Shown one piece after another: positions 33,147 to 64,000 of a stretch of DNA of 64,000 nt. The first letter of the stretch is position 1; every line of letters starts with the position of its first letter. Under the pieces are notes generated by a model. It made no database searches, was not told the origin of the DNA, and worked only from the letters and a program-made list of their open reading frames with translations. A program made the position numbers and the translations under genes. The stretch comes from Ignavibacteriales bacterium (lineage in GTDB: Bacteria > Bacteroidota > Ignavibacteria > Ignavibacteriales > Melioribacteraceae), in contig DAIEQA010000109.1 of the NCBI GenBank assembly GCA_027348115.1, positions 3,104 to 67,103 of the forward strand. Direction: 5' to 3'.

Positions 33147-33200
33147 AAAGAATTAAGGAGTAAGAAGCATATAGTAGCTTTAAATACTTCTTTTAATTTT

Positions 33201-33232: not shown

Positions 33233-33290
33233 AAAAGTATAACTATTATAGCGTCGTTAAAAATTCTAACCAATTGTTTGGAAAAAAATT

Positions 33291-35441: not shown

Positions 35442-35499
35442 TTAATTCTAATTACCGGCAACAAACATTATTCGGTTTGTCTCAAAAGAAAATTTAACC

Positions 35500-36967: not shown

Positions 36968-37005
36968 CGAATTTTAACAAATTAATTTAAGGCATCAAAC
37001 GCATT

Positions 37006-37218: not shown

Positions 37219-37368
37219 TACTCCAATTCTGATAGAATATTATCGAAAACGATTGGAAAAAATTTAGGGTATGATTGATTTTTTTTAAAGAATAAATAGA
37301 CGACCGATGAATTATTGCCGTTTTAAGCAATAAATGCGGTATTTAAGCGAAAAAAAAGGTTATTAGCG

Positions 37369-38409: not shown

Positions 38410-38507
38410 TATGCTTCAAAATTTTTTTTACAAAGTAAACAAAAATGTTTGGCATTACAAAACTTTTGTTATTTTTGCTCAATCACGATGCACGAGAATT
38501 TTCGACT

Positions 38508-39344: not shown

Positions 39345-39392
39345 TCGTTATGCCGGCAAAAACAGCTCCCGTTAATTTAAAGCGAAATAACA

Positions 39393-39947: not shown

Positions 39948-39964
39948 GTAAAATAATGTTTTAA

Positions 39965-43881: not shown

Positions 43882-44071
43882 TATTTATCTCTGAATTGTT
43901 TTTATTGTCTAAGTTAGAATCGAGCGGAAGATTTTCCATTCGATGTAAATATTTTTTATCAAGCTTCACTACCCAAACAACCGCGATTACAAATAATGAG
44001 AAGAAAAGAATCAGCGAGATTATCGGGAATATTTCAATACCGTCTATTTTAGTTAAATGATCCGAAAACAT
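43865..44071 (-). CDS. ccoQ: CcoQ/FixQ-like small membrane subunit
   Basis: 68 aa with a single TM (IFPIISLILFFSLFVIAVVWVV), positioned between ccoNO and ccoP. Confidence 0.65.
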   Translation of the reverse strand: MFSDHLTKIDGIEIFPIISLILFFSLFVIAVVWVVKLDKKYLHRMENLPLDSNLDNKNNSEINNEIQE

Positions 44072-44080
44072 TTTTGCCTT

Positions 44081-46207
44081 CTACTTTATTGCTGCCTGGT
44101 TTACTTTTATATCCGTGCCTAATCTCTGCAAGTAAGCAATCAGCGCTATAATATCTTTATCCGGTTCCGCCGGAGCGCCGTTTTTCATTAAGTCGTCCGC
44201 GATCGCGTTTGCTTGATTTTGCAATTCTCGGTTTGCGAATTTCTCATAACCTTTTTCGTAAGGAACACCGAGCATTCTCATAGCATTTATTTTTGCTTCG
44301 GTTGTGGAAGTATCCAGCGTTTGCGCGAAGAGCCAAGGATAACGAGGCATTATTGAACCAGGCGACATTTGTCGCGGATCCTCAAGATGCAGGTAATGCC
44401 ATAGGTTGGAATACTTTCCGCCTTCGCGGGCAAGGTCGGGGCCGGTTCTTTTCGATCCCCATAAGAAAGGATGATCGTAAACAAATTCTCCCGCTTTGGA
44501 ATATTCTCCGTATCGTTCGGTCTCCGATCTAAAAGGACGAATCATCTGCGAGTGGCACGAAACGCATCCTTCCCTTATGTAGATATCCCTTCCTTGAAGT
44601 TCAAGGGGTGTATAAGGTTTAACGCTTGCTATTGTCGGTATGTTGGATTTAATTAAAAAAGTGGGAACCATTTCCACCAATCCGCCGATCAATATTGCAA
44701 CCGTAGATAGAAGGGCAAATTTAACAGGTCTCTTTTCCAGCCACCTGTGAATCATTCCGCGCCTTAGTTTATCTTCTTCTTTATCAAAAGGAACTGCTTC
44801 GGCGTCTTCGTTCTTTACGAATGTTCCTTGCTTGGCAGTCTTAACCAAATTGTAAACCATCATGAACATGCCCGAGAAATAAAGCAATCCGCCGATTGAC
44901 CGGATCATATACATTGGAATAATTTGAAGCGTGGTTTCCAAAAAGTTTGGATATAGAAGAACTCCAAGCGGAGTGAATTGCTTCCACATTAATGATTGGG
45001 TAATTCCCGACCAATACATGGGTATCACATAGAAAACAATTCCCAAAGTGGCTACCCAGAAATGTACGGTAGCTAATTTTTTGGAATAGAGCTCTGTCTT
45101 CCACATTTTGGGAACCATCCAGTATAAAATTCCGAATGTAAGCATTCCGTTCCATCCCAAAGCTCCAACGTGAACGTGCGCAATTATCCAATCCGTATAA
45201 TGAGCAATGGCGTTAACGTTTTTAAGAGAAAGCATCGGCCCTTCAAATGTTGCCATGCCGTAAGCAGTAACGGCAACAACCATGAATTTTAAAATCGGAT
45301 TGTCGCGCACTCGGTCCCACGCGCCGCGCAGTGTAAGAAGACCGTTCAACATTCCTCCCCAGGAAGGAGCGATTAACATGATTGAAAAAACAGTTCCGAG
45401 AGATTGTGCCCAATCCGGCAGCGCGGAGTAAAGAAGATGATGCGGCCCGGCCCAAATATAAATGAATATCAATGCCCAAAAATGAAGTATTGATAGACGG
45501 TATGAATAAACCGGTCTGTTTGCCGCTTTGGGAAGGAAGTAATACATCAATCCCAAATACGGTGTTGTAAGAAAGAACGCAACCGCATTATGTCCGTACC
45601 ACCATTGAACAAGAGCGTCTTGAACGCCCGCATAGACGGGATAACTTTTTGTGAATGAAACCGGAAGCTCGATTGAATTTACCACATGAAGCACAGTAAC
45701 GGTAACAAAAGTTGCGATGTAAAACCAGACCGCAACATACATGTGTTTTTCTCGGCGCTTTATAATTGTGCCGAACATATTAATTCCGAACGCTACCCAG
45801 ACAACGGCAATCATTATATCTATCGGCCATTCAAGTTCGGCGTATTCCTTGCTCGTAGTTAATCCCATCGGAAGAGTAACGGCTGCGAGCAGAATAATTA
45901 ACTGCCAGCCCCAAAAATGAAATTGACTTAAACGGTCGTTCCACATTCTCGCTTTGCAGACACGCTGAAGCGAATAATATACTCCGGCAAATATCATGTT
46001 GCCGACAAACGCAAATATAACCGCGTTTGTATGAAGCGGCCTGATGCGTCCGAAGGTTGTATATTGAATTCCCAGATTAAGATCCGGTACGTAGAGCTGC
46101 ACTGCTATAATTAAACCGACAAGCATTCCGACAATTCCGAATACAACTGTCGCAATTATAAACTGCTTAACGATTTGATTATCGTAACTGAATTTCTCTA
46201 CCTGCAT
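44081..46207 (-). CDS. ccoN: cbb3-type cytochrome c oxidase, fused subunits I and II (CcoN-CcoO)
   Basis: The 12-TM haem-copper core (HWWYGHNAV, HHLL, HVHVGALGW) continues into a CcoO module with CVSCH. Confidence 0.93.
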   Translation of the reverse strand: MQVEKFSYDNQIVKQFIIATVVFGIVGMLVGLIIAVQLYVPDLNLGIQYTTFGRIRPLHTNAVIFAFVGNMIFAGVYYSLQRVCKARMWNDRLSQFHFWGWQLIILLAAVTLPMGLTTSKEYAELEWPIDIMIAVVWVAFGINMFGTIIKRREKHMYVAVWFYIATFVTVTVLHVVNSIELPVSFTKSYPVYAGVQDALVQWWYGHNAVAFFLTTPYLGLMYYFLPKAANRPVYSYRLSILHFWALIFIYIWAGPHHLLYSALPDWAQSLGTVFSIMLIAPSWGGMLNGLLTLRGAWDRVRDNPILKFMVVAVTAYGMATFEGPMLSLKNVNAIAHYTDWIIAHVHVGALGWNGMLTFGILYWMVPKMWKTELYSKKLATVHFWVATLGIVFYVIPMYWSGITQSLMWKQFTPLGVLLYPNFLETTLQIIPMYMIRSIGGLLYFSGMFMMVYNLVKTAKQGTFVKNEDAEAVPFDKEEDKLRRGMIHRWLEKRPVKFALLSTVAILIGGLVEMVPTFLIKSNIPTIASVKPYTPLELQGRDIYIREGCVSCHSQMIRPFRSETERYGEYSKAGEFVYDHPFLWGSKRTGPDLAREGGKYSNLWHYLHLEDPRQMSPGSIMPRYPWLFAQTLDTSTTEAKINAMRMLGVPYEKGYEKFANRELQNQANAIADDLMKNGAPAEPDKDIIALIAYLQRLGTDIKVNQAAIK

Positions 46208-46279
46208 GAAGAGAACTCCTTGGATTATTTGTAAAATTTTTTTTTAGAAGATAGGAGTTAGTAGATAGAAGTTAGATTT

Positions 46280-46483
46280 TTATGATTCCTTGTTTTCTTT
46301 TTTCTTATTTCCATCTTCTATCACCTCACTTCTGTTTTCTGTTTTTCTTTCATCGAATAAAATTCTAACCGACGGGGTATACTTATCGTCGTATTGACCG
46401 CTTTTGACAGCCCACAAATACGCTGCTAAAAATCCGCCTGCAACAAGCAGACTTGCGCCGACTAAAAGAACAACCACCGACAT
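46280..46483 (-). CDS. ccoS: cbb3 oxidase maturation protein CcoS/FixS
   Basis: 67 aa. LVAGGFLAAYLWAVKSGQYDD is the CcoS signature. Confidence 0.85.
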   Translation of the reverse strand: MSVVVLLVGASLLVAGGFLAAYLWAVKSGQYDDKYTPSVRILFDERKTENRSEVIEDGNKKKENKES

Positions 46484-48906
46484 TAGATCAAACCTCTTTT
46501 CTTTGCAATGAGGTTAGTTGCCAAAGTTGTAAACACAACAACAGATATCGAACTGACCGGCATGAGAACAGCGGCAACAAGGGGAGATAACAAACCGCGG
46601 AAAGCAAAACTTAAGCCGATCGCGTTATAAATCAACGACAATATAAAACTTGCTATAATAATTTTGTTGCCCGTTTTAGAAAATGTTATAAAATCTTTCA
46701 ATCGATGAAATGAGGAAGAATCCAATATACCTTCGCATGCCGGCGAAAAGTTGTTTGTATTATCGGAAATAGAAATCCCGACATCGCTCTGCTTAAGCGC
46801 GCCGGCGTCGTTAAGACCGTCGCCAATCATTAAAACTTTTTTGTCTTTTTGCTGAAGCGCTTCGACAAATTCCAACTTATCCTGCGGAGATTGACGAAAA
46901 TACAATTCGCTGTCTTCCGTAAAATATTTTTTAAGATTTAGCTTCTCGCCTTCGCCGTCTCCGGAGAGCAATGCAAGTTCATATCTTTTTTCGAGATCGG
47001 GTATGACCTTGTCTAATCCTTTTCTATACTTGTTTGAGAAACGGAAGTATCCGCGCTCCGAATTGTTTATAGAGATAAAAACTTTGGTTGAGTTGTCATC
47101 TTCAATAATATTTTTCGTGCTCGCAAACTTCCGCGAACCGATCTTATAATTATCCCCGTTTACATAAGCAAAAATTCCTTTGCCTGGTTGTTCCTCAAAT
47201 TGATCGACTTTTTTGACTGACAGATTAGGGATGGTGTTTAATATCATAACGCTTAACGGATGAGTGGAATTTCTCACAATCGATTTTATGCTTGTCAGTT
47301 CGTCATCAGTCAGGGGGTCGCCAAAGTAATTTACATCGGAAGAATTGTTTTCGGTTATTGTTCCGGTTTTATCAAATACAACCGTGTCGATCGACGCTAA
47401 CTTTTCGATAACGTGCGTGTTCTTAATATAAAATTTATGTCTTCCGAAAATTCGCATAATATTACCGAGAGTAAACGGAGTTGAAAGAGCCAGAGCGCAA
47501 GGACAAGCCAAGATCAACACTGACGTGAAAGCATCGAGGGCTGTTTTAATATTCGGCATCCATACAATTGCGGAAGCGGCAGCGATCAGCAAAACTCCGA
47601 ATGTAAAATATTTACTAATAATATTAGCTAACGAAGTTACACCGGATTCTTGTTCTTGCTCTTTGTTGAACGCTTTATTATTCCACAACTGGGTCAAATA
47701 GCTTTGGGAGACTTCCTTTATCGTTTCGACCTCGACTGCGCTGCCGATTTGCTTGCCGCCGGCATAAATCATTTGGCCGTTATGTACCGGAACCGGTATC
47801 GATTCGCCGGTAACAAAACTGTAATCGATGTTTGCCGTACCTTTTATTAAAATCGAATCGGCCGGAATTAATTCGTTATTCCGTATAATAATTCTTTCGC
47901 CGAGATTTAATTTTTCAACCGGTATTGTTGTTTCATTTCCGTCTTTCCTAATTGTCACCGAAATCGGAAAATACGATTTGTAATTCCGTTCAAAGTTTAA
48001 TGTGTCGTAAGTTTTGTTTTGAAAAAGTTTTCCTACGAGTAAAAAGAAAACAAGCCCGGCAAGAGAATCGAGATAACCGGCACCGTTGAAAAAAATTATG
48101 TCGATCATGCTTTTAACGAACAAAACAGCTATCCCAAGAGCGAGCGGAACATCGATGTTGACAATTTTTTTCTTGAGTCCTTTCCATGCGGAAATGAAAT
48201 AATCGCTGCTGCTGTAAAAGAAAACGGGCACGGCAAGGATAATATTTAAGTAGGCAAATAATCGTTTCAAATGTTCTTGTTCGGCAATCCCGACGGAAAG
48301 ATATTCCGGAAAGCTCAACAGCATTATATTCCCAAAGCAAAATCCTGCCACGCCGATTTTGTAGTATAACTTTTTGTATTCACTCTTGCTTTCCTCTTCT
48401 TTTTTCTCTTCGAGATTTAATTGCGGTTCGTAACCGATTGAATCGAGAAGTTCCACCACTTCTCTTAACGAGGTTTCATTCTCTGAAAAAGTAACGAAGA
48501 TTTTCTTCTGCAGAAAATTAACTTTAGATGATTTAATGCCCGGATTCAGATTATGAAGATTCTCAAGTATCCAGATACACGAACTGCAGTGCATCTGCAG
48601 AATATCGAAAGTGATTTTGGTTCGATTACCGTCCGTAAAATCGATTAGTTTTTGTTTTAAGTCGAGATCGTTTAGGAAATCGTAGTTCCGCTTAATATAA
48701 TTTTTTCTTGTTATACCAGGGTTGTGGTCTATTGAATAATATTCGCAAAGATTATTTCCGTGAAGAAGTTCATAGACGGTTTTGCAGCCGTTGCAGCAGA
48801 AAACTTTGTCATCGATTTTGATCAAATCATCCGGACACTCCTCGCCGCAGTGAAAACAAATTAGCTTTGTATCCGTTAATTGTTCTAGAGTTTCTGCCCT
48901 TTCCAA
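46483..48906 (-). CDS. ccoI: Copper-translocating P1B-type ATPase CcoI/FixI
   Basis: N-terminal Cys-rich finger plus an HMA-like MHCSSC, the CPC membrane motif (ACPCAL), DKTGTIT and GDGLNDAGAL. TTG start. Confidence 0.9.
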   Translation of the reverse strand: MERAETLEQLTDTKLICFHCGEECPDDLIKIDDKVFCCNGCKTVYELLHGNNLCEYYSIDHNPGITRKNYIKRNYDFLNDLDLKQKLIDFTDGNRTKITFDILQMHCSSCIWILENLHNLNPGIKSSKVNFLQKKIFVTFSENETSLREVVELLDSIGYEPQLNLEEKKEEESKSEYKKLYYKIGVAGFCFGNIMLLSFPEYLSVGIAEQEHLKRLFAYLNIILAVPVFFYSSSDYFISAWKGLKKKIVNIDVPLALGIAVLFVKSMIDIIFFNGAGYLDSLAGLVFFLLVGKLFQNKTYDTLNFERNYKSYFPISVTIRKDGNETTIPVEKLNLGERIIIRNNELIPADSILIKGTANIDYSFVTGESIPVPVHNGQMIYAGGKQIGSAVEVETIKEVSQSYLTQLWNNKAFNKEQEQESGVTSLANIISKYFTFGVLLIAAASAIVWMPNIKTALDAFTSVLILACPCALALSTPFTLGNIMRIFGRHKFYIKNTHVIEKLASIDTVVFDKTGTITENNSSDVNYFGDPLTDDELTSIKSIVRNSTHPLSVMILNTIPNLSVKKVDQFEEQPGKGIFAYVNGDNYKIGSRKFASTKNIIEDDNSTKVFISINNSERGYFRFSNKYRKGLDKVIPDLEKRYELALLSGDGEGEKLNLKKYFTEDSELYFRQSPQDKLEFVEALQQKDKKVLMIGDGLNDAGALKQSDVGISISDNTNNFSPACEGILDSSSFHRLKDFITFSKTGNKIIIASFILSLIYNAIGLSFAFRGLLSPLVAAVLMPVSSISVVVFTTLATNLIAKKRGLI

Positions 48907-49121
48907 ATTTGGTTCTTAGATTGTGTAATAAACTGTTGCTTAAAACTTCTATGTGAAGATAAAAAATCCAAGACCTTTTGTCTAATAATTATTAATGAAG
49001 TATATATCCGCATATTCAAATCTTTCTGATATGAAGAACATGCCAATAACTGAACATGCATCTTGGGAATTCTAAAACGACATACTTAAATTTGCAACAT
49101 TAAAAAATTACCGGAGGTTCA

Positions 49122-49892
49122 GTGTTGACGTTAAAAAATAAAATGGTTTTTATCACGGGCGCTTCGTCTGGAATAGGTAAATCATGCGCTTATGCTTTTG
49201 CCAAGGAAGGAGCCAATATAATAATCAGCGCCCGAAGGGTAAATCTTGTTGAAGAAGTTGCGGAGGATATCCGCCAAAAGTTCGGGGTTAAAGTCCATGC
49301 GTTCCAACTTGATGTTAGAAACAGGAAAGAGGTTATAAATTCCGTCGACGCTCTCCCCGGTGAATTTAAAAATATTGATATCTTAATCAATAACGCCGGC
49401 TTGGCAAGAGGACTAAACAAATTTTACGAAGACAATCCTGACGGCTGGGATGAAATGATTGATACAAATGTGAAAGGATTGCTTTACGTGACTCACGCGA
49501 TTCTACCCGGTATGATGGAAAGGAAGTTCGGGCATATAATCAATATTGGTTCGATAGCCGGACGCGAAGCTTATCCTAAAGGTGCGGTTTATTGCGCAAC
49601 CAAGCATGCGGTTGACGCAATTACCAGATCATTAAGGATGGATACAATAGATAAAAATATCCTTGTGAGCACAATAGATGCCGGACTGGTAGAAACGGGA
49701 TTCAGTAAAGTTCGTTTTTACGGAGATGAAGAGAAAGCTAAAAATGTTTATAAAGGATTGGATCCGATAACCGGCGATGATGTTGCAGATGCGGTAATTT
49801 TCTGTGTGTCGCGTCCGCCTAATGTTAATATTTCGGAAATTACTTTGCTTGCTGCAAGGCAGGCTAACGCTACAATATCTTACCGTGAGTAG
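49122..49892 (+). CDS. Short-chain dehydrogenase/reductase (YdfG-like)
   Basis: TGASSGIGK, NNAG and YCATKHAV motifs. Confidence 0.88.
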   Translation: MLTLKNKMVFITGASSGIGKSCAYAFAKEGANIIISARRVNLVEEVAEDIRQKFGVKVHAFQLDVRNRKEVINSVDALPGEFKNIDILINNAGLARGLNKFYEDNPDGWDEMIDTNVKGLLYVTHAILPGMMERKFGHIINIGSIAGREAYPKGAVYCATKHAVDAITRSLRMDTIDKNILVSTIDAGLVETGFSKVRFYGDEEKAKNVYKGLDPITGDDVADAVIFCVSRPPNVNISEITLLAARQANATISYRE

Positions 49893-49950
49893 GAACACTC
49901 CCCTTAATTCTATTCTTTGTAACGAGAGAGACACAAGATGAGGGTCAAAA

Positions 49951-49985
49951 AAGAACCCCGATAAAATCGGGGCTCTTGGTTTTTA
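49951..49985. terminator. Bidirectional terminator between the convergent SDR and tsaC genes
   Basis: AGAACCCCGAT-AAA-ATCGGGGCTCT, with an A-run on one side and a T-run on the other. Confidence 0.75.
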
Positions 49986-50003
49986 TAGGATGAAAATTTA
50001 TGC

Positions 50004-50615
50004 TTAGTAAAATATACTTACGTCTCCGGCACCTTCACGAATAACTTCCGGCTCTTCATTGCTTAAGTCGACAATGCTGGATGGCTCGCCTTCGAGTGCA
50101 CCGGTTGCAAGCATCAGATCAACCTGAATGTTGAAAATATTTTTTATCTCTTCAGGATTAAACAGAATATCTCCTTTACGATTTGTTACACTTGTGCTTA
50201 CTATAGGATGCCCCAATTCTTTTACAAGACTTAACGCAACAGGGTGATTAGGAATCCTGATTCCCACAGTATTTCGTTTTGTCCATAAAGTTTTAGGCAC
50301 TTCCTTTGCCGCCGGTAAAACAAATGTGTACGGCCCCGGTAAAAGCTTGCGCATAGTTTTGTAAGCGTAGTCAGAAACTTTTGCGTATTTGGAAATGTCT
50401 TTTAGATCCGGACATATAAAACTAAACAGCTTTGTTCCGGCTTCATGTTTAATAGCATATACTCTTTCGAGAGCTTCTTTGTTGAAAATGTCGCAACCGA
50501 TTCCGTAAACCGTATCGGTTGGATAAATAATTACTCCTCCTTCTCGCAAAATTTCTACAGCTTTGTTAATAAATCTTAATTGAGGTGTAACAGGATGCAA
50601 TTCATAATATTCCAT
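50004..50615 (-). CDS. tsaC: L-threonylcarbamoyladenylate synthase (YrdC/TsaC family)
   Basis: IIYPTDTVYGIGCD and IRIPNHP motifs. Confidence 0.85.
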   Translation of the reverse strand: MEYYELHPVTPQLRFINKAVEILREGGVIIYPTDTVYGIGCDIFNKEALERVYAIKHEAGTKLFSFICPDLKDISKYAKVSDYAYKTMRKLLPGPYTFVLPAAKEVPKTLWTKRNTVGIRIPNHPVALSLVKELGHPIVSTSVTNRKGDILFNPEEIKNIFNIQVDLMLATGALEGEPSSIVDLSNEEPEVIREGAGDVSIFY

Positions 50616-50804
50616 AGACTGCTCCTTCCTTTGTTTGTGGTTCTGTGTCTCTTATACAATGAAGCTTATGTTGAAGTTCTGCATTCGCGGTGTATTTAGA
50701 AAAGTTTCTACTATAAAAAAGGTTTTTTAAAACTAATAGTCAACAAAAATTTCTGGTAAAAATGTGATGAATTGCGGAAATTAAATTTCAAAAAATGGGA
50801 AACG

Positions 50805-51971
50805 ATGAAATTCGCAAAAATTTCGAGGCAGGTAATAGTTTTAGGACTGGTAAGTTTATTCACGGATTTTGCCAGCGAGATGCTTTACCCCATCACTCCG
50901 ATTTTTTTAACTGCAGTTCTTGGCGCCTCAATGTCGGTAGTAGGTCTTATCGAAGGCATTGCGGAAGTAACGGCAGGATTTCTAAAAGGATATTTCGGAA
51001 ATCTTTCGGATAAAACTGGCAAGCGTTCGATATTTCTTGTAGCGGGTTACGGCATTTCGGGCGCTGTAAAATCATTGCCGGGTTTTATAGTTACAATTCC
51101 ATCTGTTATTATTTCAAGGGTAATAGATAGAGTAGGAAAGGGAATTCGTACGGCACCGCGCGATGCTTTGCTTGCAAGCTATGCCAATGGAAACACCGGA
51201 GCCGTATTCGGATTTCATAGAGGGATGGATACACTGGGCGCCGTAATTGGTCCGCTCACTGCAATTTCTCTTTTATATTTCTTTCCGGGCAAGTATTCAT
51301 GGATATATCTATTTGCATTAATTCCCTCGCTGTGCGCAATTGGATTTACCCTGGCAGTTAAGGATAGTCAGGCTAAAACCAGAACGTCTTCCAAAAAAAA
51401 TTATTCCGCATTTTTAATAAACGCTTCTGGAGAATACAAAACTTTTCTTGCACTGTTCACATTGTTTTCATTTGTAAACAGCAGCGATGTATTTTTAATC
51501 TTGAAGTCCAAACAAATTTCTCATTCCGATCTTTCGGCAATTCTGGGTTATGTTTTCTATAATATTATTTATGCGGCATCGTCTTACCCTATCGGCCTTT
51601 TAGCGGATAAATTCGGGAAGAAAAATATTTTTGTAATAGGGTTGATAATTTTTTCCATCACTTATTTCGGCTTTGCCGTGAATGCCGAGAATATTTTTAT
51701 CTGGTTCCTTTTTGCTTCATACGGAATTTATGCTTCGTCGACAGAAGGCGTAGCCAAGGCATGGGTTTCAGATTTAGTTCCGGATGAATTCCGCGGATCC
51801 GCAATAGGCCTGCTTACAATGCTTTCAAGCTTTGCCGTAATGTTCGGATCATTTTTAACAGGGTCTCTCTGGGATAATTTCGGCGCTCAAATACCGTTTT
51901 TAGTTTCTTCTTTTGTTAGTCTGTTAATTGCGATGATTCTTCTTTTCAAAAAAAAGAAAGGTATACGCTAA
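50805..51971 (+). CDS. MFS transporter
   Basis: 12 TM helices with an MFS-type loop (DKTGKRS, DRVGKGIRTAPRDA). ATG 50805 is preferred over 50772. Confidence 0.8.
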   Translation: MKFAKISRQVIVLGLVSLFTDFASEMLYPITPIFLTAVLGASMSVVGLIEGIAEVTAGFLKGYFGNLSDKTGKRSIFLVAGYGISGAVKSLPGFIVTIPSVIISRVIDRVGKGIRTAPRDALLASYANGNTGAVFGFHRGMDTLGAVIGPLTAISLLYFFPGKYSWIYLFALIPSLCAIGFTLAVKDSQAKTRTSSKKNYSAFLINASGEYKTFLALFTLFSFVNSSDVFLILKSKQISHSDLSAILGYVFYNIIYAASSYPIGLLADKFGKKNIFVIGLIIFSITYFGFAVNAENIFIWFLFASYGIYASSTEGVAKAWVSDLVPDEFRGSAIGLLTMLSSFAVMFGSFLTGSLWDNFGAQIPFLVSSFVSLLIAMILLFKKKKGIR

Positions 51972-52052
51972 AAAACTTTTCTGTTTAACCATATATAGTA
52001 GAGTTGCCGACTTTTTATCTAAGTACCCAATTTCCTATTTTTGAGTAGCAAT

Positions 52053-52754
52053 ATGAATGGCATTATGAATAAAGATAAATTAGCAGTGGTTGCGGTTAGC
52101 GGCGGAATGGACAGCTGCGTTACCGCGGCAATTGCAAATCAAACTTCGGAACTGGCTTTAATACATATAAATTACGGTCAGCGTACTCAAGCCCGCGAGC
52201 TTAAAGCGTTTAACGATATTGCCGATTTTTATAATGTAGATAAACGCCTGGTAATAGATCTTTCGCACTTTGCAAAGATCGGCGGCTCGTCTTTAACGGA
52301 TCAAAAAATTGAGGTAACAAAAGCGGATTTGGCAAACAAAGAAGTTCCCACTTCGTATGTGCCGTTTCGCAATGCTAATATATTAAGTGCGTGTGTAAGC
52401 TGGGCTGAAGTCTTAAATGCCGGTTCGGTTTACATCGGCGCGGTTTACGAAGACGCCAGCGGATACCCGGATTGCCGTCCACAGTTTTACGAAGCGTTTG
52501 AAAAGATGGTCGATATCGGAACGAAACCTTCTACCCATATAAAAATTGAAACGCCTATAATTTATTTATCCAAAGCGGAAATTGTAAAGAAGGGAATGGA
52601 GCTCGGCGCGCCGCTTCATTTAACGTGGTCGTGTTATCAAAGCGAAGATGAAGCCTGCGGTGTATGCGACAGCTGCGCTTTCCGTCTGCGCGGTTTTCGA
52701 CTTGCCGGCGTTGACGACCCGATTGCGTATAAAATTAGGCCGGATTATTTTTGA
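52053..52754 (+). CDS. queC: 7-cyano-7-deazaguanine (preQ0) synthase
   Basis: PP-loop VVAVSGGMDS and a C-terminal zinc Cys cluster (CYQSEDEACGVCDSC). Confidence 0.92.
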   Translation: MNGIMNKDKLAVVAVSGGMDSCVTAAIANQTSELALIHINYGQRTQARELKAFNDIADFYNVDKRLVIDLSHFAKIGGSSLTDQKIEVTKADLANKEVPTSYVPFRNANILSACVSWAEVLNAGSVYIGAVYEDASGYPDCRPQFYEAFEKMVDIGTKPSTHIKIETPIIYLSKAEIVKKGMELGAPLHLTWSCYQSEDEACGVCDSCAFRLRGFRLAGVDDPIAYKIRPDYF

Positions 52755-52797
52755 GTGTAGAATGAAGAATTCAGAATGAAGAGTGTAGAGCTTTTTT
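52747..52797. repeat. Left flanking repeat of the R-M cassette (TTTTGAGTGTAGAATGAAGA-ATTCA-GAATGAAGAGTGTAGAGCTTTTTT)
   Basis: Starts at the queC stop codon. A shorter copy lies at 55497-55528 and a related copy at 60888-60929. Confidence 0.75.
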
Positions 52798-52854
52798 ATG
52801 TATGTTATCACATAAGCAATATCAGTTGTAAAGGAAATTGAAAGAATAAAAAAA

Positions 52855-54436
52855 ATGAACCAAGAATTAATTACGATAAAAGAAGCAAGTGAATGGATTA
52901 GTATTCAACTGAAGAAGGATATCACTCCGTCAAATATTTCTTATTTAGTTAATTATGGAAGAATCAAAAAATTTTCAGATAATGGTAACACCCTTGTAAG
53001 CAAAAAGGAGTTGATTCGCTATTATGATTCGTATTATGGGAATCGACAAATCAACTGGAAAGAAAAACTCGGAAATGACATAGATTGGCATTTATCATTC
53101 GAGCAATACAAGGAATTTCAAACTACTAAACATGTCCATCGACTTCATCCATATAAAGGTAAATTCATTCCGCAACTAGTGGAATATTTTCTGGATGATC
53201 ACACGGATGAATTTAAAAAGGAAGTTTATTTCAACAAAGGAGATATCGTTCTCGATCCATTTTGTGGAAGCGGAACAACTCTAGTACAAGCTAATGAACT
53301 TGGGATGAATTGTCTTGGCGTTGATATTTCATCTTTTAATTCATTGATGAGTAATGCCAAAATTGGTAAGTATAATTTATTTGAGCTAAAAATTGAGATA
53401 CAAAAAATCACAGAGGAGTTACGACAATTTATTTATGACTCCAAGACAGTAAAGTTTGAGAAAGAGTTGCTTGATAAACTCTCGAAGTTTAATAATGAAT
53501 ATTTTCCTTCTCCAGAATACAAGCTAAGGATAAACAATGATGAAATAGATGAAAAAGAATACGGGAAAGCAAAGGAAAATGAATTTCTCCCTATCTATAA
53601 AAAATTAGTTAAAGAGTTTGAAATTGAATTAAAGCAAGGGAAATCAGATACTTTTTTAGATAAATGGTTTCTTCAACAAGTTAGATCAGAAATAGAGTTC
53701 GTTTTCGATTTGATAAAAAAAAATAAAGATCCCGGAAATAAAAAAAATTGTATCTATCATTCTCAGTCGTACTATTCGTTCTTGTCGCGCAACAACTCAT
53801 TCTGACTTAGCAACACTTCTTGAGCCAATAACAACAACGTATTATTGTTCTAAGCATGGGAAGATTTGCAAGCCATTGTTTTCAATATTAAGCTGGTGGG
53901 AAAGGTACTCCATTGACACTCTGAAACGTCTTACTGAATTTAATAAATTAAGAACGAATACATATCAGCATTGCATTACGGGCGATAGTAGGGAAATCAA
54001 TTTGTTCTCTGCAATTGAAAAAGTTAATCCGGGTTTTGCCAAACAAATTAAAGATCAAAAGATCAGCGGAATATTTTCTAGTCCACCATACGTTGGTTTG
54101 ATTAATTATCATGAGCAACATGCTTACGCTTACGATTTGTTCGGTTTAAAAAGAAAAGACGAATTAGAAATAGGACCACTTTTCAAAGGACAGGGAAGTG
54201 AGGCAAAGAAATCATATATCGAAGGGATATCAGCTGTATTAATTAATTGTAAAAAGTATTTAAAAGAAGATTATAATGTTTTTCTTGTTGCTAATGATAA
54301 ATATGATATGTACACAAAGATTGCAGAAAAATCCGGGATGAGAATAGTCCAACAGTTCAAACGGCCTGTACTGAACAGAACTGAAAAAGACAAAGCTGCG
54401 TACTCAGAAAGTATATTTCATTTCAAGGGGAACTAA
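52855..54436 (+). pseudogene. Type II DNA methyltransferase (amino-MTase, SPPY type, N-terminal HTH) split by a 1-nt frameshift in A9/A8 tracts
   Basis: ORF 52855..53805 carries HPYKGKF and VLDPFCGSGTT (motif I). ORF 53876..54436, in a different frame, carries SSPPY (motif IV). That second frame is open back to about 53717 and reads IVSIILSRTIRSCRATTHSDLATL. Confidence 0.8.
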
Positions 54437-55492
54437 ATGGACTCATTAAAAAAAGAAAAAATTGCTTTGGAGGTAGTTAAAACTGTAAAATCAAAATTCG
54501 ATGATTTTCCAGAAGATGCCTCAAATAATCGTAATGCACCATTCCATGAAGCTTTTCTAAATGCATTTAAATTGAGAATTGAACATTATGTAACTGATAT
54601 ACCAATTTTTGTGAGCCTCGCAAGTTGGATGCATGGTTTGAATACTCGCTTAGGTCAATCATTTTTTGAAAAAACAGCTCACATACTTTGCGACGGCGAG
54701 AAAAGAAAATTCGCAAATCTTAAGATAAACGATCATCAGCAATCAGTGATTAACGGGATAATAGCTTCATGTAAGAATTCAACTCGTTTGCCAAACTTAT
54801 TTTCTGAAAATGAAGAAATTTACTTGAAACTTGATGTCGGAGAAATCGACGCACCAAACTTTTCAGCAGATGTATTCTTTGAAGATGAAACAAGTTTGAC
54901 TTTAATTGAGCTAAAGACAGTCAAACCTAATAGTGATGTTTTTAAAGAGCAGAAAAGTAAATTCTTGAATGGAAAAGCTGCTTTGAAAAATAGATTTCCA
55001 GCGAAAGAAATTCATTTTTATCTTGGTTTTCCATTTGATCCACTGCATAAAGAAAAATGTGGTTATGATAAAAAGCGTTTTTTCGATTATAGTGTTGACT
55101 TCAAAAAATATTTTGCAAATGAAGAAGTTTTACTTTCAAACGAACTTTGGGATTTCCTTTCACAAGAGAAAAATACCATGGAAGATATTCTAGAAATTAT
55201 TAATAAAATTGCACAACCTGATTTCATGGATAAATTTGATTTTATTAATGATGTAAAAAACATCGCAGTAGATAAAGGGAAATACAAAGCAATCCTATCT
55301 GATTGGTTCATGAAAAGGGAACTTGTGATGCTGGATCATTATGATAAGATTAAAGTTGCGGCAAAGGAGGATAAAAGACTTCAAAGAGTTCTATCACAAA
55401 ATTTATTTGATTCTGAAAATGAGTATAAGGAAAACCGAATTCTTTCGTTATTAAGTGTCTTAAATAAAATTGATTTCTCAAATATGGCTTGA
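54437..55492 (+). CDS. Putative type II restriction endonuclease (PD-(D/E)xK candidate)
   Basis: The ATG immediately follows the MTase TAA. Candidate catalytic core is SADVFFEDETSLTLIELKT (D ... ExK). The family (possibly TdeIII-like) is not verifiable here. Confidence 0.6.
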   Translation: MDSLKKEKIALEVVKTVKSKFDDFPEDASNNRNAPFHEAFLNAFKLRIEHYVTDIPIFVSLASWMHGLNTRLGQSFFEKTAHILCDGEKRKFANLKINDHQQSVINGIIASCKNSTRLPNLFSENEEIYLKLDVGEIDAPNFSADVFFEDETSLTLIELKTVKPNSDVFKEQKSKFLNGKAALKNRFPAKEIHFYLGFPFDPLHKEKCGYDKKRFFDYSVDFKKYFANEEVLLSNELWDFLSQEKNTMEDILEIINKIAQPDFMDKFDFINDVKNIAVDKGKYKAILSDWFMKRELVMLDHYDKIKVAAKEDKRLQRVLSQNLFDSENEYKENRILSLLSVLNKIDFSNMA

Positions 55493-55496
55493 AATG

Positions 55497-55528
55497 CTTT
55501 TGAGTTTGAATGAAGAGTCTAATTTTTA
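55497..55528. repeat. Right flanking repeat of the R-M cassette (CTTTTGAGTTTGAATGAAGAGTCTAATTTTTA)
   Basis: Aligns with 52747-52797 minus one internal GAATGAAGA unit. Confidence 0.7.
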
Positions 55529-55597
55529 TCTGCGCAGATCTGTTAAATCAGTTTGATCTGTATTCTATAAATTGAATTTTATTTAACTGAGTTATAT

Positions 55598-55972
55598 ATG
55601 ACCGACAAAACTAAAATCCTTGATACATTTCCTAATCCAAATCCGGAGCGGGATTACATAATAATCCACACGGCGCCAGAGTTTACATCGCTTTGCCCTA
55701 AGACCGGTCAGCCCGATTTTGCCACTATCATTCTCGAATACATACCGGAAAAAATCTGCGTCGAGTTAAAGAGCTACAAATTTTATTTGCAGTCTTACCG
55801 CAACGATGGAATATTCTTTGAGGCGGTAACCAACAAGATATTAAACGACTTGGACAAAGTGATGAAACCGCGCTATATAAAAATTACCGCTAAGTTTAAC
55901 ACGCGCGGCGGAATTTCATCGGAGATAATTGCCGAGCAGAGAAGGAAAAAATTGAAGAAAAAATTTGTCTGA
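55598..55972 (+). CDS. queF: NADPH-dependent 7-cyano-7-deazaguanine reductase (unimodular YkvM type)
   Basis: EFTSLCPKTGQPDFATI with the catalytic Cys. 124 aa. Confidence 0.92.
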   Translation: MTDKTKILDTFPNPNPERDYIIIHTAPEFTSLCPKTGQPDFATIILEYIPEKICVELKSYKFYLQSYRNDGIFFEAVTNKILNDLDKVMKPRYIKITAKFNTRGGISSEIIAEQRRKKLKKKFV

Positions 55973-56009
55973 CGGAACATGAATTCCCAGCTTAATTCTA
56001 ATTAACTAA

Positions 56010-57428
<1,419 letters not shown>

Positions 57429-57454
57429 CTACAATTGAACAATGTGGTATTATT

Positions 57455-57478
57455 GGGGCGAGATTTCCTCGCCCCTAC
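57455..57478. repeat. REP-family hairpin GGGGCGAG-ATTTC-CTCGCCCC-TAC
   Basis: Same architecture and TAC tail as the REPs around the RAYT gene. Sits between the lyase gene and glnD. Confidence 0.65.
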
Positions 57479-57490
57479 TATTAATTGTAT

Positions 57491-60052
57491 ATGATTGAAG
57501 AATCCCTAAAAATAAAAGAGCAGTTTTTTGCCGATCGCGACAGAATTTTTCATGACGAAGAAATTCTGAAAGATCCGTTTAAGTTCTGCGTTAAGTGGAG
57601 TGTGCTGGTTGAAGAATATATTCAACTCGTTCTTAAGAATATGAAACTTAAATGTGCAGTTGCCTCAGTCGGTAGTTTCAGTCGCAGAGAGCTTTCCCCG
57701 TATTCCGATATCGATATGATGTTCATATTCGATAAGGTGCAGGGAAACGAGCAGACAATAAAAGACTGCGTTACAATGCTGTGGGATTCCGGCATAGAAG
57801 TCTCTCATACGGTGCGCGATTTTTCGGATATTAAAAGATTCCTTGAAGAAGATATCGAGGCATTTACCCAATTCTTTGAGACCCGATACATTTTTGGGAA
57901 TGAAAAAATATACAACGAATGGAACGGAAAAGTTTTAGCTCCTCTTTCCGAAAAGAACAAACGGAAACTGATTCTTCAATACTACGACGATCTTTATCTC
58001 CGTTATGAAAAGTACGGAGAATCCGCCAAGGTGCTCGAACCAAATGTTAAGTATACCGCCGGCGGCCTTCGGGATCTTCAGATGGTTGAATGGATTTATT
58101 CGTTGAAAAATAATCTTCTTCTTACATCGCAGGAAGAAATAACGCAGACTCAATACTTTTTGACTTTTCTAAAGCGCGATAAAGTTTTAGTGCCGCGGGC
58201 AATTGCGCGGCTGCAGGAAAGTTATCGCTACGTTCTTCATACGCGCAATCATCTTCATCTGCTGAGCGGGCATAAAAACGACCGGCTCGAATTCAGCTAC
58301 CAGGAAAAAATTGCTGCTGTTCACGGTTTCGGCACCGAGGGCTGGCACAGTTACATGCGCAAGTATTTTGAGTCTGCCAATATTATAAAACGTTTTACGC
58401 ACACAATGATGCAGCGGTTTTACGAAGAGATGACTCCGCCGCTCAGTAATTTTCTTTCCATAAATCTTGATGAGGACTATAAATTAACCGGCAATGTAAT
58501 TGCAAAAGCAACCGATTCGCCGATGACGCTTTCGGTGATACTCCGCGCGTTTTACTACCGCGGACTTCATGACGCGCATTTCGATGAACAGCTTCGATCG
58601 ACAATAATTGAAGCCGTTGTTGATCTTGAAGCCACTCAAACTGTGGAACCGCAATCATCGGTTTTTTTTAGAGAAATTTTACGACTTCCGAAAAATGTAG
58701 GAAGCAATTTAGCCGTGTTGAATGAACTTGGCGTGCTCAGCGCTTTCCTGCCTGAGTTCAAAGATCTCAACGGATTTTTTCAGCCGGGAGTTTATCATTG
58801 TTACGCGGCAGATGAACACACGCTTATTGCAATTAACAATTTGGAAAAGCTCGCGCTCGATTCCTCGCCTCTTGGCAAGCTATTCCAAAATATTAGGGAT
58901 AAGGATATTCTCTACCTTGCGATGCTGTTCCATGATATCGCCAAACCGATAAGCATTTCCGGTCATGAAATTATCGGGGCCGAAATTGCGAACTCGGTTA
59001 TGGAGCGGCTTGGATACGGGCTTGAAGAAATTGAAACCGTGCAGTTCCTTGTTCGCCAGCATTTAACAATGGAACAGGTTGCGTTCCGACGTAATCTTAA
59101 CGACGCTTCCACGCTTAACAATTTTGCCGAGCTGTTTTCCAATTCAAATTATCTTGACCTGCTTTATCTTGTAACGTACTCCGATCTTTCCGCTGTATCG
59201 CAGGTAGTTTGGACGCAATGGAAGAGCGACCTGTTGAATGAGCTTTACAGGAAAACCAAAACCATGCTCGACGACAGAATTACCGGGCAGGAATTGTTGT
59301 CGTATAGTTTGCAGGAAATTATAAGCGGCTCGGAAGTTTATTCCGAGGATTCAGTGAAAGATCATATCGAATCGATAAATGATCTCGGCTACCTGCAGTA
59401 TTTTTCGCTTGAAGAAATCAACCAGCACATAGAGGAAATAGAAAAGGGTTCGCCCGTTTCCGTATTCTTTAAAACCGACGGAACATTCACTTCGGTTACA
59501 ATTATCACCCGCGACAGCGAAGCGCTGCTTTCAAGAATGTGCGGCGCGCTTTCCATAAACGATCTTAATATTCACGACGCAAAAATCTTTACGAGGAAAG
59601 ACGGAATTGTTATTGATAGCTTCAACGTTTCGGATTTCCGCACGAACAAACTTGTTGATGAAGAACGATATTCCAAAATTACCAACGATATTTACCTTGC
59701 CGTGGAAAACGAATTGCAGATTACTAAGGAGTTTAACCAGATAAGATCCAAATGGTGGCGGCTGGAAAACAAACTTTTCAAGCGCAAAGGTAAAATTAAA
59801 ATAGAATTTGAGAAACACGATAAGTACACAATCATAGATATTTTCTCGCCGGACCGCCTTGGCTTGCTTTACCAGATAACCAAAAAGATGAACGAGCTTG
59901 GACTTTCGATTTACTTTGCCAAGATATCCACAAAGGCGGATGATATAGTCGATTCGTTCTACATACTCGACCGCAACCGCAAAAAACTTTCGCTCGATGT
60001 ATACGAACTTATCTCTCACGAATTAACCCAAACAATAGAAGAAATGCTTTAG
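57491..60052 (+). CDS. glnD: [Protein-PII] uridylyltransferase / uridylyl-removing enzyme
   Basis: NTase motif GSFSRRELSPYSDIDMMF, an HD domain (HDIAKP) and two C-terminal ACT-like domains. Confidence 0.88.
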   Translation: MIEESLKIKEQFFADRDRIFHDEEILKDPFKFCVKWSVLVEEYIQLVLKNMKLKCAVASVGSFSRRELSPYSDIDMMFIFDKVQGNEQTIKDCVTMLWDSGIEVSHTVRDFSDIKRFLEEDIEAFTQFFETRYIFGNEKIYNEWNGKVLAPLSEKNKRKLILQYYDDLYLRYEKYGESAKVLEPNVKYTAGGLRDLQMVEWIYSLKNNLLLTSQEEITQTQYFLTFLKRDKVLVPRAIARLQESYRYVLHTRNHLHLLSGHKNDRLEFSYQEKIAAVHGFGTEGWHSYMRKYFESANIIKRFTHTMMQRFYEEMTPPLSNFLSINLDEDYKLTGNVIAKATDSPMTLSVILRAFYYRGLHDAHFDEQLRSTIIEAVVDLEATQTVEPQSSVFFREILRLPKNVGSNLAVLNELGVLSAFLPEFKDLNGFFQPGVYHCYAADEHTLIAINNLEKLALDSSPLGKLFQNIRDKDILYLAMLFHDIAKPISISGHEIIGAEIANSVMERLGYGLEEIETVQFLVRQHLTMEQVAFRRNLNDASTLNNFAELFSNSNYLDLLYLVTYSDLSAVSQVVWTQWKSDLLNELYRKTKTMLDDRITGQELLSYSLQEIISGSEVYSEDSVKDHIESINDLGYLQYFSLEEINQHIEEIEKGSPVSVFFKTDGTFTSVTIITRDSEALLSRMCGALSINDLNIHDAKIFTRKDGIVIDSFNVSDFRTNKLVDEERYSKITNDIYLAVENELQITKEFNQIRSKWWRLENKLFKRKGKIKIEFEKHDKYTIIDIFSPDRLGLLYQITKKMNELGLSIYFAKISTKADDIVDSFYILDRNRKKLSLDVYELISHELTQTIEEML

Positions 60053-60068
60053 GTGACAATTGAATTTT

Positions 60069-60887
60069 ATGAACAGAACAAACCCGATCGGATTTTTCGA
60101 TTCCGGAATAGGAGGATTAACCGTAGTCAAGTCAGTCTCGCAATTAATGCCGAATGAAAATATTGTTTACTTTGGCGATACGGCGCGCGTTCCTTACGGC
60201 TCAAAGTCCAACGAAACGGTTATTGAATATTCCATCCAAGCGGCAAATTTTCTTTTGAGAAAAAATATTAAACTGCTCGTAGTTGCCTGCAACACGGCAT
60301 CGTCTGTTGCGCTGAACGAACTGAAAAGATTTTTAACCATCCCTGTTATCGGTATGATTGAACCCGGCGCTAAGATGGCCTTGAACGAATCGAAGAAAAG
60401 AGTTGTAGGCGTAATCGGTACAAACGCTACTGTGAATAATAAAGCTTATTCAAATGAGCTGAAGAAGCTTAATCCGAAAGTAAAAGTATTTGAGCAGGCC
60501 TGTCCGCTCTTTGTTCCGTTGGCGGAAGAAGGATGGATTGACACGAAGGTAACTGAACTTGTTGCGAAAGAATATTTATCCGGGTTTAAAGAAAAGAAAA
60601 TAGATAGTTTAATACTTGGTTGCACGCACTATCCCATCTTAAAAGATGTGATACAAAAAGTTGTTGGAAAGAATGTTAAGCTTGTTGATTCCGGTACGCC
60701 CGCAGCCAGATTGGTAGAGGATTATTTAAACGGAAGAGGATTGAGAAATCAATCGGTTCATCATGGCGTAAGCGAGTTTTATGTGAGCGACGTTCCTACA
60801 AAATTCCGTGAAGTAGCCGAAAGATTTTTAGGAAAGAAAGTTACCCACATTCATAAAGTTGAATTGGAGGAGCTTACGAATGAGTGA
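60069..60887 (+). CDS. murI: Glutamate racemase
   Basis: FDSGIGGLTV, ACNTAS and GCTHYP motifs. Confidence 0.92.
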   Translation: MNRTNPIGFFDSGIGGLTVVKSVSQLMPNENIVYFGDTARVPYGSKSNETVIEYSIQAANFLLRKNIKLLVVACNTASSVALNELKRFLTIPVIGMIEPGAKMALNESKKRVVGVIGTNATVNNKAYSNELKKLNPKVKVFEQACPLFVPLAEEGWIDTKVTELVAKEYLSGFKEKKIDSLILGCTHYPILKDVIQKVVGKNVKLVDSGTPAARLVEDYLNGRGLRNQSVHHGVSEFYVSDVPTKFREVAERFLGKKVTHIHKVELEELTNE

Positions 60888-60969
60888 ACTCAGAGTGTAG
60901 AATTATGAATGCAGAATGAAAGGCTTTTATGAATTACATTCTGAACTCTGCATTCATAATTCTGCATTC
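60888..60969. repeat. Long imperfect inverted repeat built from GAATGNAG-AATTNN-GAATGNAG modules; probable bidirectional terminator
   Basis: AGAATTATGAATGCAG (60899-60914) pairs perfectly with CTGCATTCATAATTCT (60948-60963). The left arm resembles the R-M flanking repeat, and the right arm overlaps the last codons of the Nudix gene. Confidence 0.7.
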
Positions 60970-61490
60970 AAGCGGTACATCGAGACGCCGCAAATAGTTT
61001 TGGCATCTACAATTTCTCCGGTGCGAATCTTTTCACTAATCTCCTCAATGGTGAATTCAAACATTTCCATTCCTTCTTCGCCTTCTTCGCGCGCATGGTT
61101 TCCGGCGGTTAATTCCTGTCCAAGATAGATGTGAAGTACTTCGTCGCAGAAACCGGGGGTTGTATAAATTTTACCGAGCTTGGAAATTTTTTTAGCGGAG
61201 TAGCCTGTCTCCTCCGTTAATTCCCTTGTTGCGCAAACCTGCGGGTCTTCGCCTTTTTCCAGTTTACCGGCGGGCAATTCAAAAATAATTTCGTTGTGAG
61301 GATAGCGGTATTGTTTTATCAAAACAATTTTGCCGTTACCTAATAGCGGAACAATAACTGCGCCTCCCGGATGAACGGCCACCTGCCGGGATGCTTTATT
61401 ACCGCTGCCGTTGTATTCTATTTCATCGACCTTTACGTCGAACACTTTGCCTTCAAAAACTATGTTGCTTTTTGTGACGTTAAAATTCAT
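60954..61490 (-). CDS. NUDIX hydrolase (ADP-ribose pyrophosphatase-like)
   Basis: Nudix box GKLEKGEDPQVCATRELTEETGY. Confidence 0.88.
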   Translation of the reverse strand: MNFNVTKSNIVFEGKVFDVKVDEIEYNGSGNKASRQVAVHPGGAVIVPLLGNGKIVLIKQYRYPHNEIIFELPAGKLEKGEDPQVCATRELTEETGYSAKKISKLGKIYTTPGFCDEVLHIYLGQELTAGNHAREEGEEGMEMFEFTIEEISEKIRTGEIVDAKTICGVSMYRLNAEL

Positions 61491-61628
61491 AAGTCTTCCC
61501 GATTCTTTTATCTAAGATATTAAAAACTGACGGCATTTGATTATTGCCGTTGAAAGAAAAATTTTGAACAGCTATGTTTCAACCGGCGTAATAATTCTTC
61601 ATGAAAAATAAAAAGAAAGGATATAGAT

Positions 61629-61922
61629 ATGCTTCTTATACGGGATGTTTTTAAAGCTAAACCCGGCAAAGCTAAAAATCTTGTTAGTACAATGAAGCAG
61701 GCAATTCCCTTTATGGAAGCCGAGGGATTTTCGAACATCAAAGTTATGACGGATGTTGTTTCAAATTATTGGACCGTTGTAGTTCAAACAGAGGTGGAAA
61801 GTCTCGCTCATTTCGAAGCGAAAGTTTCCGGCTTTAGTTCCAAACCTCAACTGGATGAGATAATGAAAGGGTATATAGACAACATAGAAGGAGGGCATAG
61901 AGAAATATTCAAAATAGAATAA
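61629..61922 (+). CDS. Hypothetical 97-aa protein (possibly a dimeric alpha+beta barrel fold)
   Basis: Clean ORF with an AAGGA RBS. No motif recognised. Confidence 0.45.
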   Translation: MLLIRDVFKAKPGKAKNLVSTMKQAIPFMEAEGFSNIKVMTDVVSNYWTVVVQTEVESLAHFEAKVSGFSSKPQLDEIMKGYIDNIEGGHREIFKIE

Positions 61923-61954
61923 AAATGTTTGTAGTTTTTAATACGGAGAAATAA

Positions 61955-61977
61955 AAGGGACTCTGAGAGAGTCCCTT
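61955..61977. terminator. Bidirectional terminator hairpin
   Basis: AAGGGACTC-TGAGA-GAGTCCCTT between convergent genes. Confidence 0.7.
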
Positions 61978-61991
61978 GTTGTTATGTTGAA

Positions 61992-62444
61992 TTATTCCAA
62001 GTCTTTCTTCATGCAGATACTGTGCGGCATGTTTGCATATTGACCGAAGTTTGGAATTCTTGAATACCCGCTCTTCTCGTAGAGACCAAGGGCTTCATGT
62101 TGATAAACTCCGGTTTCTAAAATTGCGCTTGCATAACCCAACTGTTTTGCCCATGCTTCTAGTTCGCTAAGTACAAGTTTGGAAATTCCTCTGCCGCGGA
62201 ATTCACTCTTAACAAACATTCTCTTTATCTCGATGGTTTTATCGTCGTATTTTTTGAAGCATCCGCAGCCCGCCGCCGAATCATCGTCATGCGCTACAAC
62301 AACGGTATCAATATAATCGATTACATTGTATTGATCATATACTTCCTGATCTTTGCCGTAACGGCCGTTTAAATCTTTATCCAATTCAACAATCAGTTTT
62401 CTGAAGTCCGCATTATCACTGGTTGTCCTTTTCACCAGTATCAT
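61992..62444 (-). CDS. GNAT family N-acetyltransferase
   Basis: Acetyl-CoA motif A context RGRGISKLVLSELEAWAKQLGY. Confidence 0.85.
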   Translation of the reverse strand: MILVKRTTSDNADFRKLIVELDKDLNGRYGKDQEVYDQYNVIDYIDTVVVAHDDDSAAGCGCFKKYDDKTIEIKRMFVKSEFRGRGISKLVLSELEAWAKQLGYASAILETGVYQHEALGLYEKSGYSRIPNFGQYANMPHSICMKKDLE

Positions 62445-62476
62445 ATCATCTCTCTATTAAAATTATTTTAAGATAT

Positions 62477-63463
<987 letters not shown>

Positions 63464-63528
63464 AACTAATCCTCCAAAGTTTTATTTCAGCGGATTTATA
63501 CCGCCTGTTAAAATTATATTATCAAATT

Positions 63529-63545
63529 TGTACAAGCGTTGTACA
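63529..63545. promoter_or_regulatory. Perfect inverted repeat TGTACAA-GCG-TTGTACA upstream of the aldo/keto reductase gene (candidate operator)
   Basis: 17-bp dyad, 66-82 bp upstream of the ATG at 63463. Confidence 0.4.
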
Positions 63546-63689
63546 TCTAAACAGCTGTTTTGTTTTCGCGGTTCTATTCATTTTGGAAATTATTTCCTTT
63601 GCGAACTTTGCGTTTAATAAAGATCCCTTTTTTAAGCTGAGACGGCAAAGTGTAGCGCAGATAGCGCGGAGAAAAACAGTATATTTGAT

Positions 63690-64000
63690 TTATATATTTA
63701 TTGATGTTGCCGTTTTTCCTTCCTCCGTCAAGGTATAATATCCTTTCTTTTTGCAGCCGTGGAATTCGATCCAGCCGAGCTTTTTTAAAACGATAGTATC
63801 CCGTGTTATTGTAGCTCTTGATGTACTTGTCAACTTTACCATTTGAGCAACGCTTAATTGTGTTGATTCTTTCAATCCGTTAATTATAACCGCTATACGT
63901 TCCGGCACCTTAGTTTGCGGAAATTTTAGGTTTAGCTGCTCTTTAGATAAATTAATGATTAGTTCCTTTAATTCGTTCCGGCCGTTTTTAGCTTCATTTT
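63690..64000 (-). CDS. C-terminal winged-helix DNA-binding domain of a larger protein (5' partial; gene continues beyond the window)
   Basis: The frame of ORF 63690..63908 stays open to nt 64000. LSVAQMVKLTSTSRATITRDTIVLKKLGWIEFHG is a typical wHTH. Confidence 0.55.
   Translation of the reverse strand, partial: NEAKNGRNELKELIINLSKEQLNLKFPQTKVPERIAVIINGLKESTQLSVAQMVKLTSTSRATITRDTIVLKKLGWIEFHGCKKKGYYTLTEEGKTATSINI

Follow-up and report, generated by a model that had tools for sequence, protein, structure and literature searches.

We have found that, in the 64,000-nucleotide stretch of DNA analysed here (the window), the methylase gene of a two-gene Type II restriction-modification (R-M) operon is broken by a single extra A in a short homopolymer. 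On balance, this change from A8 to A9 is probably a real and unprogrammed slip mutation, private to the strain from which the window comes. The event would then be an early stage of R-M decay or inactivation, reached by a common mutational route and not through a dedicated switch. The operon consists of the methylase followed by a nuclease of the TdeIII family, and the features concerned are listed below.

52755..55597, + strand: low-G+C island with the R-M pair, between queC (52041-52754) and queF (55598-55972)
52855..53805, + strand: methylase ORF 1, frame 1, 316 aa, with ATG at 52855 and TGA at 53803-53805
53715..53723, + strand: first tract, A9, the lesion site; A8 in all other datasets covering the tract
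53717..54436, + strand: methylase continuation, frame 2, open after TGA TAA at 53711-53716, with the stop TAA at 54434-54436
53740..53747, + strand: second tract, A8, of the same length in all datasets; the shift is not here
54437..55492, + strand: nuclease, TdeIII family (PF09520), intact, 351 aa, an unbroken ORF

ORF 1 comprises 289 native residues and then a tail of 27 aa which is out of frame. It carries an N-terminal HTH-like region, the sequence HPYKGKF and motif I, VLDPFCGSGTT (53248-53280), and its residues 37–160 match PF01555. Frame 2 holds a conserved block at 53750-53875 (residues 299–340) and motif IV, SSPPY, at 54077-54091, and the earliest ATG, GTG or TTG in this frame is a TTG at 53876. 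Frames 1 and 2 are two halves of one N4/N6 DNA methyltransferase, in which motif I comes before motif IV at a distance of ~270 residues, and the SPPY sequence is typical of N4-cytosine enzymes. When one A is removed from either tract, a single ORF of 526 aa results. This read-through protein matches PF01555 (N6_N4_Mtase) with 59 bits at a cut-off of 26.7, and a search with it returned thousands of single-ORF relatives of ~526 aa, hundreds of which are 63–81% identical over the full length. Since the read-through protein matches both the profile and these full-length single-ORF relatives, the break should be regarded as real in the window sequence and not as a chance pattern of ORFs. This agrees with the preliminary description of the locus, which had claimed one methylase gene broken by a +1 frameshift inside a homopolymer and whose coordinates and motifs we could all reproduce; its further statement, that the nuclease is intact and starts right after the methylase stop, is also correct. 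The appropriate annotation is a methylase of 526 aa whose first A-run carries a +1 frameshift.

The position of the extra A was resolved by comparison with other public data. The closest match of the methylase, a 526-aa ENA protein (P0001), corresponds to the window gene after deletion of an A from the first tract and reads DLIKKIKIPEIKKIVSIILSRT, and ORF 1 is identical to it up to K289. It is encoded on a 56-kb MEGAHIT contig (ERZ27237587 k141_377064, our locus L001), which differs from the window over positions 42855-64000 (21,146 bp) by five substitutions and one indel, the latter being the extra A at 53715. A8 is likewise found in another ENA assembly, ERZ27237554, and the two MEGAHIT assemblies are independent; all three loci L001, L002 and L003 have A8 at the first tract. 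In addition, the Logan contigs of four mine-drainage metagenome runs (X1–X4) are the same as the window over 52800-55500 except for one base less at 53715, and a fifth mine-drainage run (X5) shows A8 too, together with the common alleles at 52575 and 52779. In X1–X5 the tract length was read from contigs at depth 3–9, and such contigs drop rare variants. The preliminary description had placed the switch point in either of the two tracts and had worked out the repair in the second one. Its first location holds, while the second does not: a repair at 53740-53747 restores the frame arithmetically, and we have rejected it as every other dataset differs from the window at 53715-53723 instead.

Because all other datasets covering the first tract read A8, the native allele is A8, i.e., ATA AAA AAA ATA encoding I-K-K-I, with the window carrying A9. 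In the homologues a hydrophobic residue is conserved where the repair of A9 gives Ile. On the other hand, outside the window the A9 allele is absent from public datasets, which speaks against a real mutation. There is no database record of the exact 316-aa product, the A9-specific word is in no indexed run, and a 63-base query across the tract matched A8 runs only. Queries with the private SNPs found the window haplotype in no indexed run, and a scan of JGI metagenomes with a pattern allowing A6–A12 gave no match.

We have then compared the locus with its relatives in other species. The scan of GTDB genomes showed that the species of the window is absent from them, the best match being 80% identical. 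From GTDB species representatives, 80 loci (L005–L084) were assembled with homologous methylases of 63–80% identity, among them Ignavibacteriota, Bacteroidota, Elusimicrobia, Poribacteria, Nitrospirae and several archaea. The methylase is in a single frame over residues 1 to ~524 in all 80 homologues, none of which is split. In most of them a TdeIII-like nuclease lies immediately downstream, and the abutting order of methylase and nuclease recurs in many phyla.

Across the 75-nt segment homologous to the tract region, the longest A-run of the 80 homologues ranges from 0 to 8 nt and never reaches 9, and AAG codons often interrupt it. Since these runs are broken by AAG and follow the choice of Lys and Ile codons, the tract itself is a by-product of coding, owing to conserved Lys-Lys codons in a gene rich in A+T. 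In the window methylase, 43 of the 64 Lys codons are AAA, and the G+C content of the gene is 0.32.

Downstream of the tract, residues 299–340 (LSRT.R.CRATTH.DL.TL..P....YYC.KH.K.CKP) show a mean top-residue frequency of 0.86, versus 0.74 overall, and many of these positions are invariant in 95% or more of the 80 homologues. The near-invariant segment CRATTH...YYC.KH.K.CKP is rich in Cys and His, lies between motif I and motif IV, and could serve in metal binding or target recognition.

The methylase family is unusually conserved, with its 63–80% identity extending across distant bacterial phyla and archaea. The window nuclease has full-length matches among the nucleases at the homologous loci, which fall into two classes relative to it, one of 46–59% and the other of about 22–33% identity. 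As the methylases stay so similar, the nuclease partner would seem to diverge, or to be exchanged, much faster than the methylase. In two Neomarinimicrobiota loci, L045 (1430-1651 and 4001-4096) and L046 (1480-1575), short fragments of the motif I region are located upstream of the full methylase, and they may be remnants of another methylase copy.

The assignment to Type II R-M systems relies on both genes. The methylase, whose ORF is interrupted in the window, is an N4/N6 enzyme with motif I and motif IV, adjacent to the nuclease and in the same orientation. The nuclease scores above the curated cut-off of PF09520 (RE_TdeIII) in the Pfam search, with an E-value of 5.4e-50 and 170.7 bits at a cut-off of 27.2, covering profile positions 4–241 of 242. 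It starts with an ATG at 54437, immediately behind the methylase stop (TAAATG), and the sequence AAGGGG lies 6 nt upstream of this ATG. The NCBIfam search added nothing specific beyond the Pfam assignments. A search of PDB sequences with the nuclease retrieved no solved relative, and the same search with the methylase retrieved only short motif I or local matches to solved beta-class enzymes. In the upstream region, neither a scan for promoters and terminators nor a search for repeats gave anything above background. The R-M pair is a horizontally acquired low-G+C island between queC and queF, the G+C content being 0.26–0.32 in the island, against 0.447 in queC and 0.408 in queF. Both flanking genes belong to the queuosine pathway, and the island sits exactly between them.

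The base accuracy of the window was examined against the runs over window positions 1-20000, 20001-40000 and 44001-64000, ~60 kb in total. Position 53715 is the only isolated 1-nt indel in this range that sets the window apart from all runs. The window, of 39% G+C, contains 17 A/T tracts of at least 8 nt and ~200 of at least 6 nt, with only three 9-nt homopolymers in 64 kb; the other two, A9 at 25996 and T9 at 46237, agree with the main haplotype. The remaining indels, at 13954, 27573, 46236 and 56023, occur with clustered substitutions or in single runs, which indicates strain variation. In X4 and X5 only, the T9 tract at 46237-46245 (within 46224-46245) is three bases shorter and accompanied by adjacent substitutions, again strain variation. 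A noisy long-read assembly with homopolymer errors throughout was also considered for the window and rejected, as there is no other isolated 1-nt indel in the ~60 kb.

The substitutions private to the window are mostly synonymous and at third codon positions, e.g., 47170, 63416, 22397 and 25442. As this is the mark of divergence under purifying selection and not of sequencing noise, the window is best taken as a base-accurate assembly of a real strain, which departs slightly from the dominant one in the public runs. At 15496-15547, ten private substitutions relative to X1–X4 are all at synonymous third-codon positions and spaced in threes, a pattern that resembles a short stretch recombined in from a diverged lineage; in this segment, X5 shares some of the words of the window.

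The private differences at 52575, 52779 and 53715 cluster within 1.14 kb on the 5' side of the island. Such a cluster fits better with a linked haplotype than with a random error that happened to fall beside two real SNPs. The difference at 52575 replaces Ala by Ser at the end of queC. That at 52779 is intergenic and precedes the methylase ATG by 76 nt; through it, the direct repeat AGAATGAAGA (52759-52768 and 52773-82) becomes perfect. Beyond the island, a tryptophanase-like (Beta_elim_lyase) gene at 56040-57428 contains an in-frame TAA at 56487-56489. This TAA is common to the window and L001, and X1, X2, X4 and X5 read G at 56487 (GAA, Glu), so the population apparently segregates for a nonsense allele here.

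Based on the above analyses, a real slip mutation is favoured because the assembly is clean over ~60 kb, because the other private differences bear an evolutionary signature, because A9 is linked with two nearby private SNPs, and because another loss-of-function allele, the TAA at 56487-56489, segregates next door. The extra A would have arisen by replication slippage. Truncation after K289 would remove the block of residues 299–340 together with the catalytic SPPY half, and the product encoded by the DNA should be inactive.

It speaks against the slip mutation that a cell with a null allele of the methylase and an intact nuclease next to it would be expected to die. GGNCC, the TdeIII site and a candidate target of the window system, is not avoided: the host part of the window has 59 occurrences versus 53.6 expected, a count that is uninformative on the candidate target. 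The avoidance analysis for GANTC was likewise uninformative. We propose two routes by which a slip mutant could survive. In the first, ribosomes would stop 630 nt upstream of the nuclease start, the coupling of this start to the methylase stop would be lost, and polarity would lower the expression of the nuclease. In the second, RNA polymerase would slip on A9, and transcripts with A8 or A11 would restore the full-length methylase; the frame would not be recovered by a −1 shift of the ribosome. In many bacteria RNA polymerase is prone to slip on runs of 9 A/T, and the run used by Thermus dnaX is an A9 (PMC1088944). A frameshifted tssM1 is rescued to ~20–25% by slippage on A11 (PMC4256274). The nuclease of the window is 100% identical to the copy beside the intact methylase on the contigs of the other assemblies, and because of this identity with A8 strains the A9 event should be either very recent or not real.

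The preliminary description had named a consensus error and a simple mutation among its options, and both are still live, the mutation as the probable explanation and the error as a possible but rather unlikely one. If the window contains a consensus or assembly error, the true sequence of the strain is A8, the methylase is intact, and the extra A is a homopolymer miscall arising, e.g., from long-read or low-coverage data. Every dataset examined has A8, the in-frame form is found in 80/80 homologues, and a dead methylase is biologically awkward next to an intact and identical nuclease. The site is also one of the only three 9-nt homopolymers in 64 kb, i.e., among the longest in the window, where consensus errors concentrate, and the absence of the window haplotype from the indexed short-read runs leaves room for a long-read origin. 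However, the ~60 kb compared with the runs contain no other isolated homopolymer indel despite 17 tracts of at least 8 nt, the other private differences carry the synonymous signature of real evolution, and the indel lies within 1.14 kb of two of them. Overall, we continue to prefer the slip mutation.

Under phase variation, which is distinctly unlikely, A8/A9 would be a contingency locus under selection, and the methylase, along with the whole R-M system coupled to it, would be turned ON and OFF reversibly in the population. Host-adapted bacteria offer well-documented examples of R-M genes whose phase variation is driven by homopolymers (e.g., PMC4209511). At the present locus, the window and the other samples do differ by one unit at a mutable tract in an R-M methylase, and the two A8 tracts of the gene are slightly above the synonymous-codon shuffle, in which at least two such tracts arose in 3.4% of trials (P about 0.03), a mild enrichment at most. 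The preliminary description had regarded the homopolymer frameshift as a hallmark of phasevarions and had pointed to tract-length heterogeneity at 53710-53750 as the sign to look for. The hallmark reading is not supported by the data. The contigs of five runs from other samples are uniformly A8, and no alternative contig was seen in these runs (contigs at depth 3–9) or in the two assemblies. The tract consists of I-K-K-I codons and is neither conserved nor extended in the homologues, where it has 0–8 A and is often broken by AAG, a pattern that does not point to maintenance beyond coding needs. Tracts of A8 or A9 are common in a window of 39% G+C, and poly-A runs of 8–9 nt mutate far less readily than the long G/C tracts that contingency loci typically contain. 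Besides, the system is of Type II with a separate full-length nuclease, while known phasevarions are of Type III mod or Type I; the methylase is not one without a lethal partner, such as an orphan, a Type III mod or an enzyme beside an inactive nuclease.

A particular form of this idea, to which we assign a slim chance, is that A8/A9 works as a reversible switch in which A9 turns the methylase off and silences the nuclease by polarity, with RNA-polymerase slippage supplying enough methylase for a safe transition. If true, an entire Type II R-M operon would possess a self-protecting ON/OFF device, and this in a free-living, Ignavibacteriota-like population of mine drainage.

Programmed recoding, by which the two-ORF state would be designed and the methylase produced via transcriptional slippage or a +1 ribosomal shift on A9, is highly improbable. 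A slippery run of at least 9 A/T does lie at the frame junction (A9 at 53715-53723, with frame 2 opening at 53717), and slippage at such a site has been proven in other bacteria (PMC1088944; PMC4256274). However, the frameshifted state is unique to the window, and its relatives, including the 100% identical copies, have a single ORF; as the two-frame arrangement is not conserved in the orthologues, recoding is essentially excluded. Naturally split methylases, such as M.AquI and M.EcoHK31I, exist, and motif I is in ORF 1 with motif IV in frame 2. The preliminary description had allowed for two polypeptides assembling into an active enzyme, the least probable explanation of all and effectively excluded, because the block at 53750-53875 is out of frame in ORF 1 and upstream of the first frame-2 start (53876), so that the two ORFs together do not encode all conserved blocks, and 0/80 homologues are split.

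Beyond the annotation of the gene, the finding matters little. If A9 is real, the window presents a natural R-M system that is losing its methylase first, which should be lethal by theory, and one could then readily test with it whether polarity in the operon or slippage in transcription allows a cell to survive such a loss. If A9 is an error, it illustrates that a single homopolymer miscall can mimic phase variation.

Compared with known systems, the locus resembles the TdeIII-family Type II R-M systems (PF09520 with PF01555) in the full-profile match of the nuclease, the SPPY methylase and the abutting gene order, and differs from them by the frameshifted methylase. With the phasevarions of Haemophilus, Neisseria, Helicobacter and Campylobacter it shares a simple repeat in the methylase ORF that sets the frame. 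Unlike in these, the tract of the window is short, a codon by-product and not conserved, and no heterogeneity was seen in the contigs; the system is of Type II, its separate nuclease is intact, and the organism is environmental and Ignavibacteriota-like. As in the rescue by poly-A slippage known from Thermus dnaX (A9), Citrobacter tssM1 (A11) and the poly-A genes of endosymbionts, A9 lies on the sense strand at the frame change, and one A less or two A more in the mRNA would restore the full ORF; in contrast, the arrangement in the window is not conserved, and slippage is proposed here only as a survival route of the mutant. Homopolymer consensus errors in genome and MAG assemblies likewise produce an apparent pseudogene from a 1-base difference in a long homopolymer, whereas the window is otherwise without such differences over ~60 kb. 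Overall, both the R-M operon and the lesion, be it an event or an artefact, are of kinds already known.
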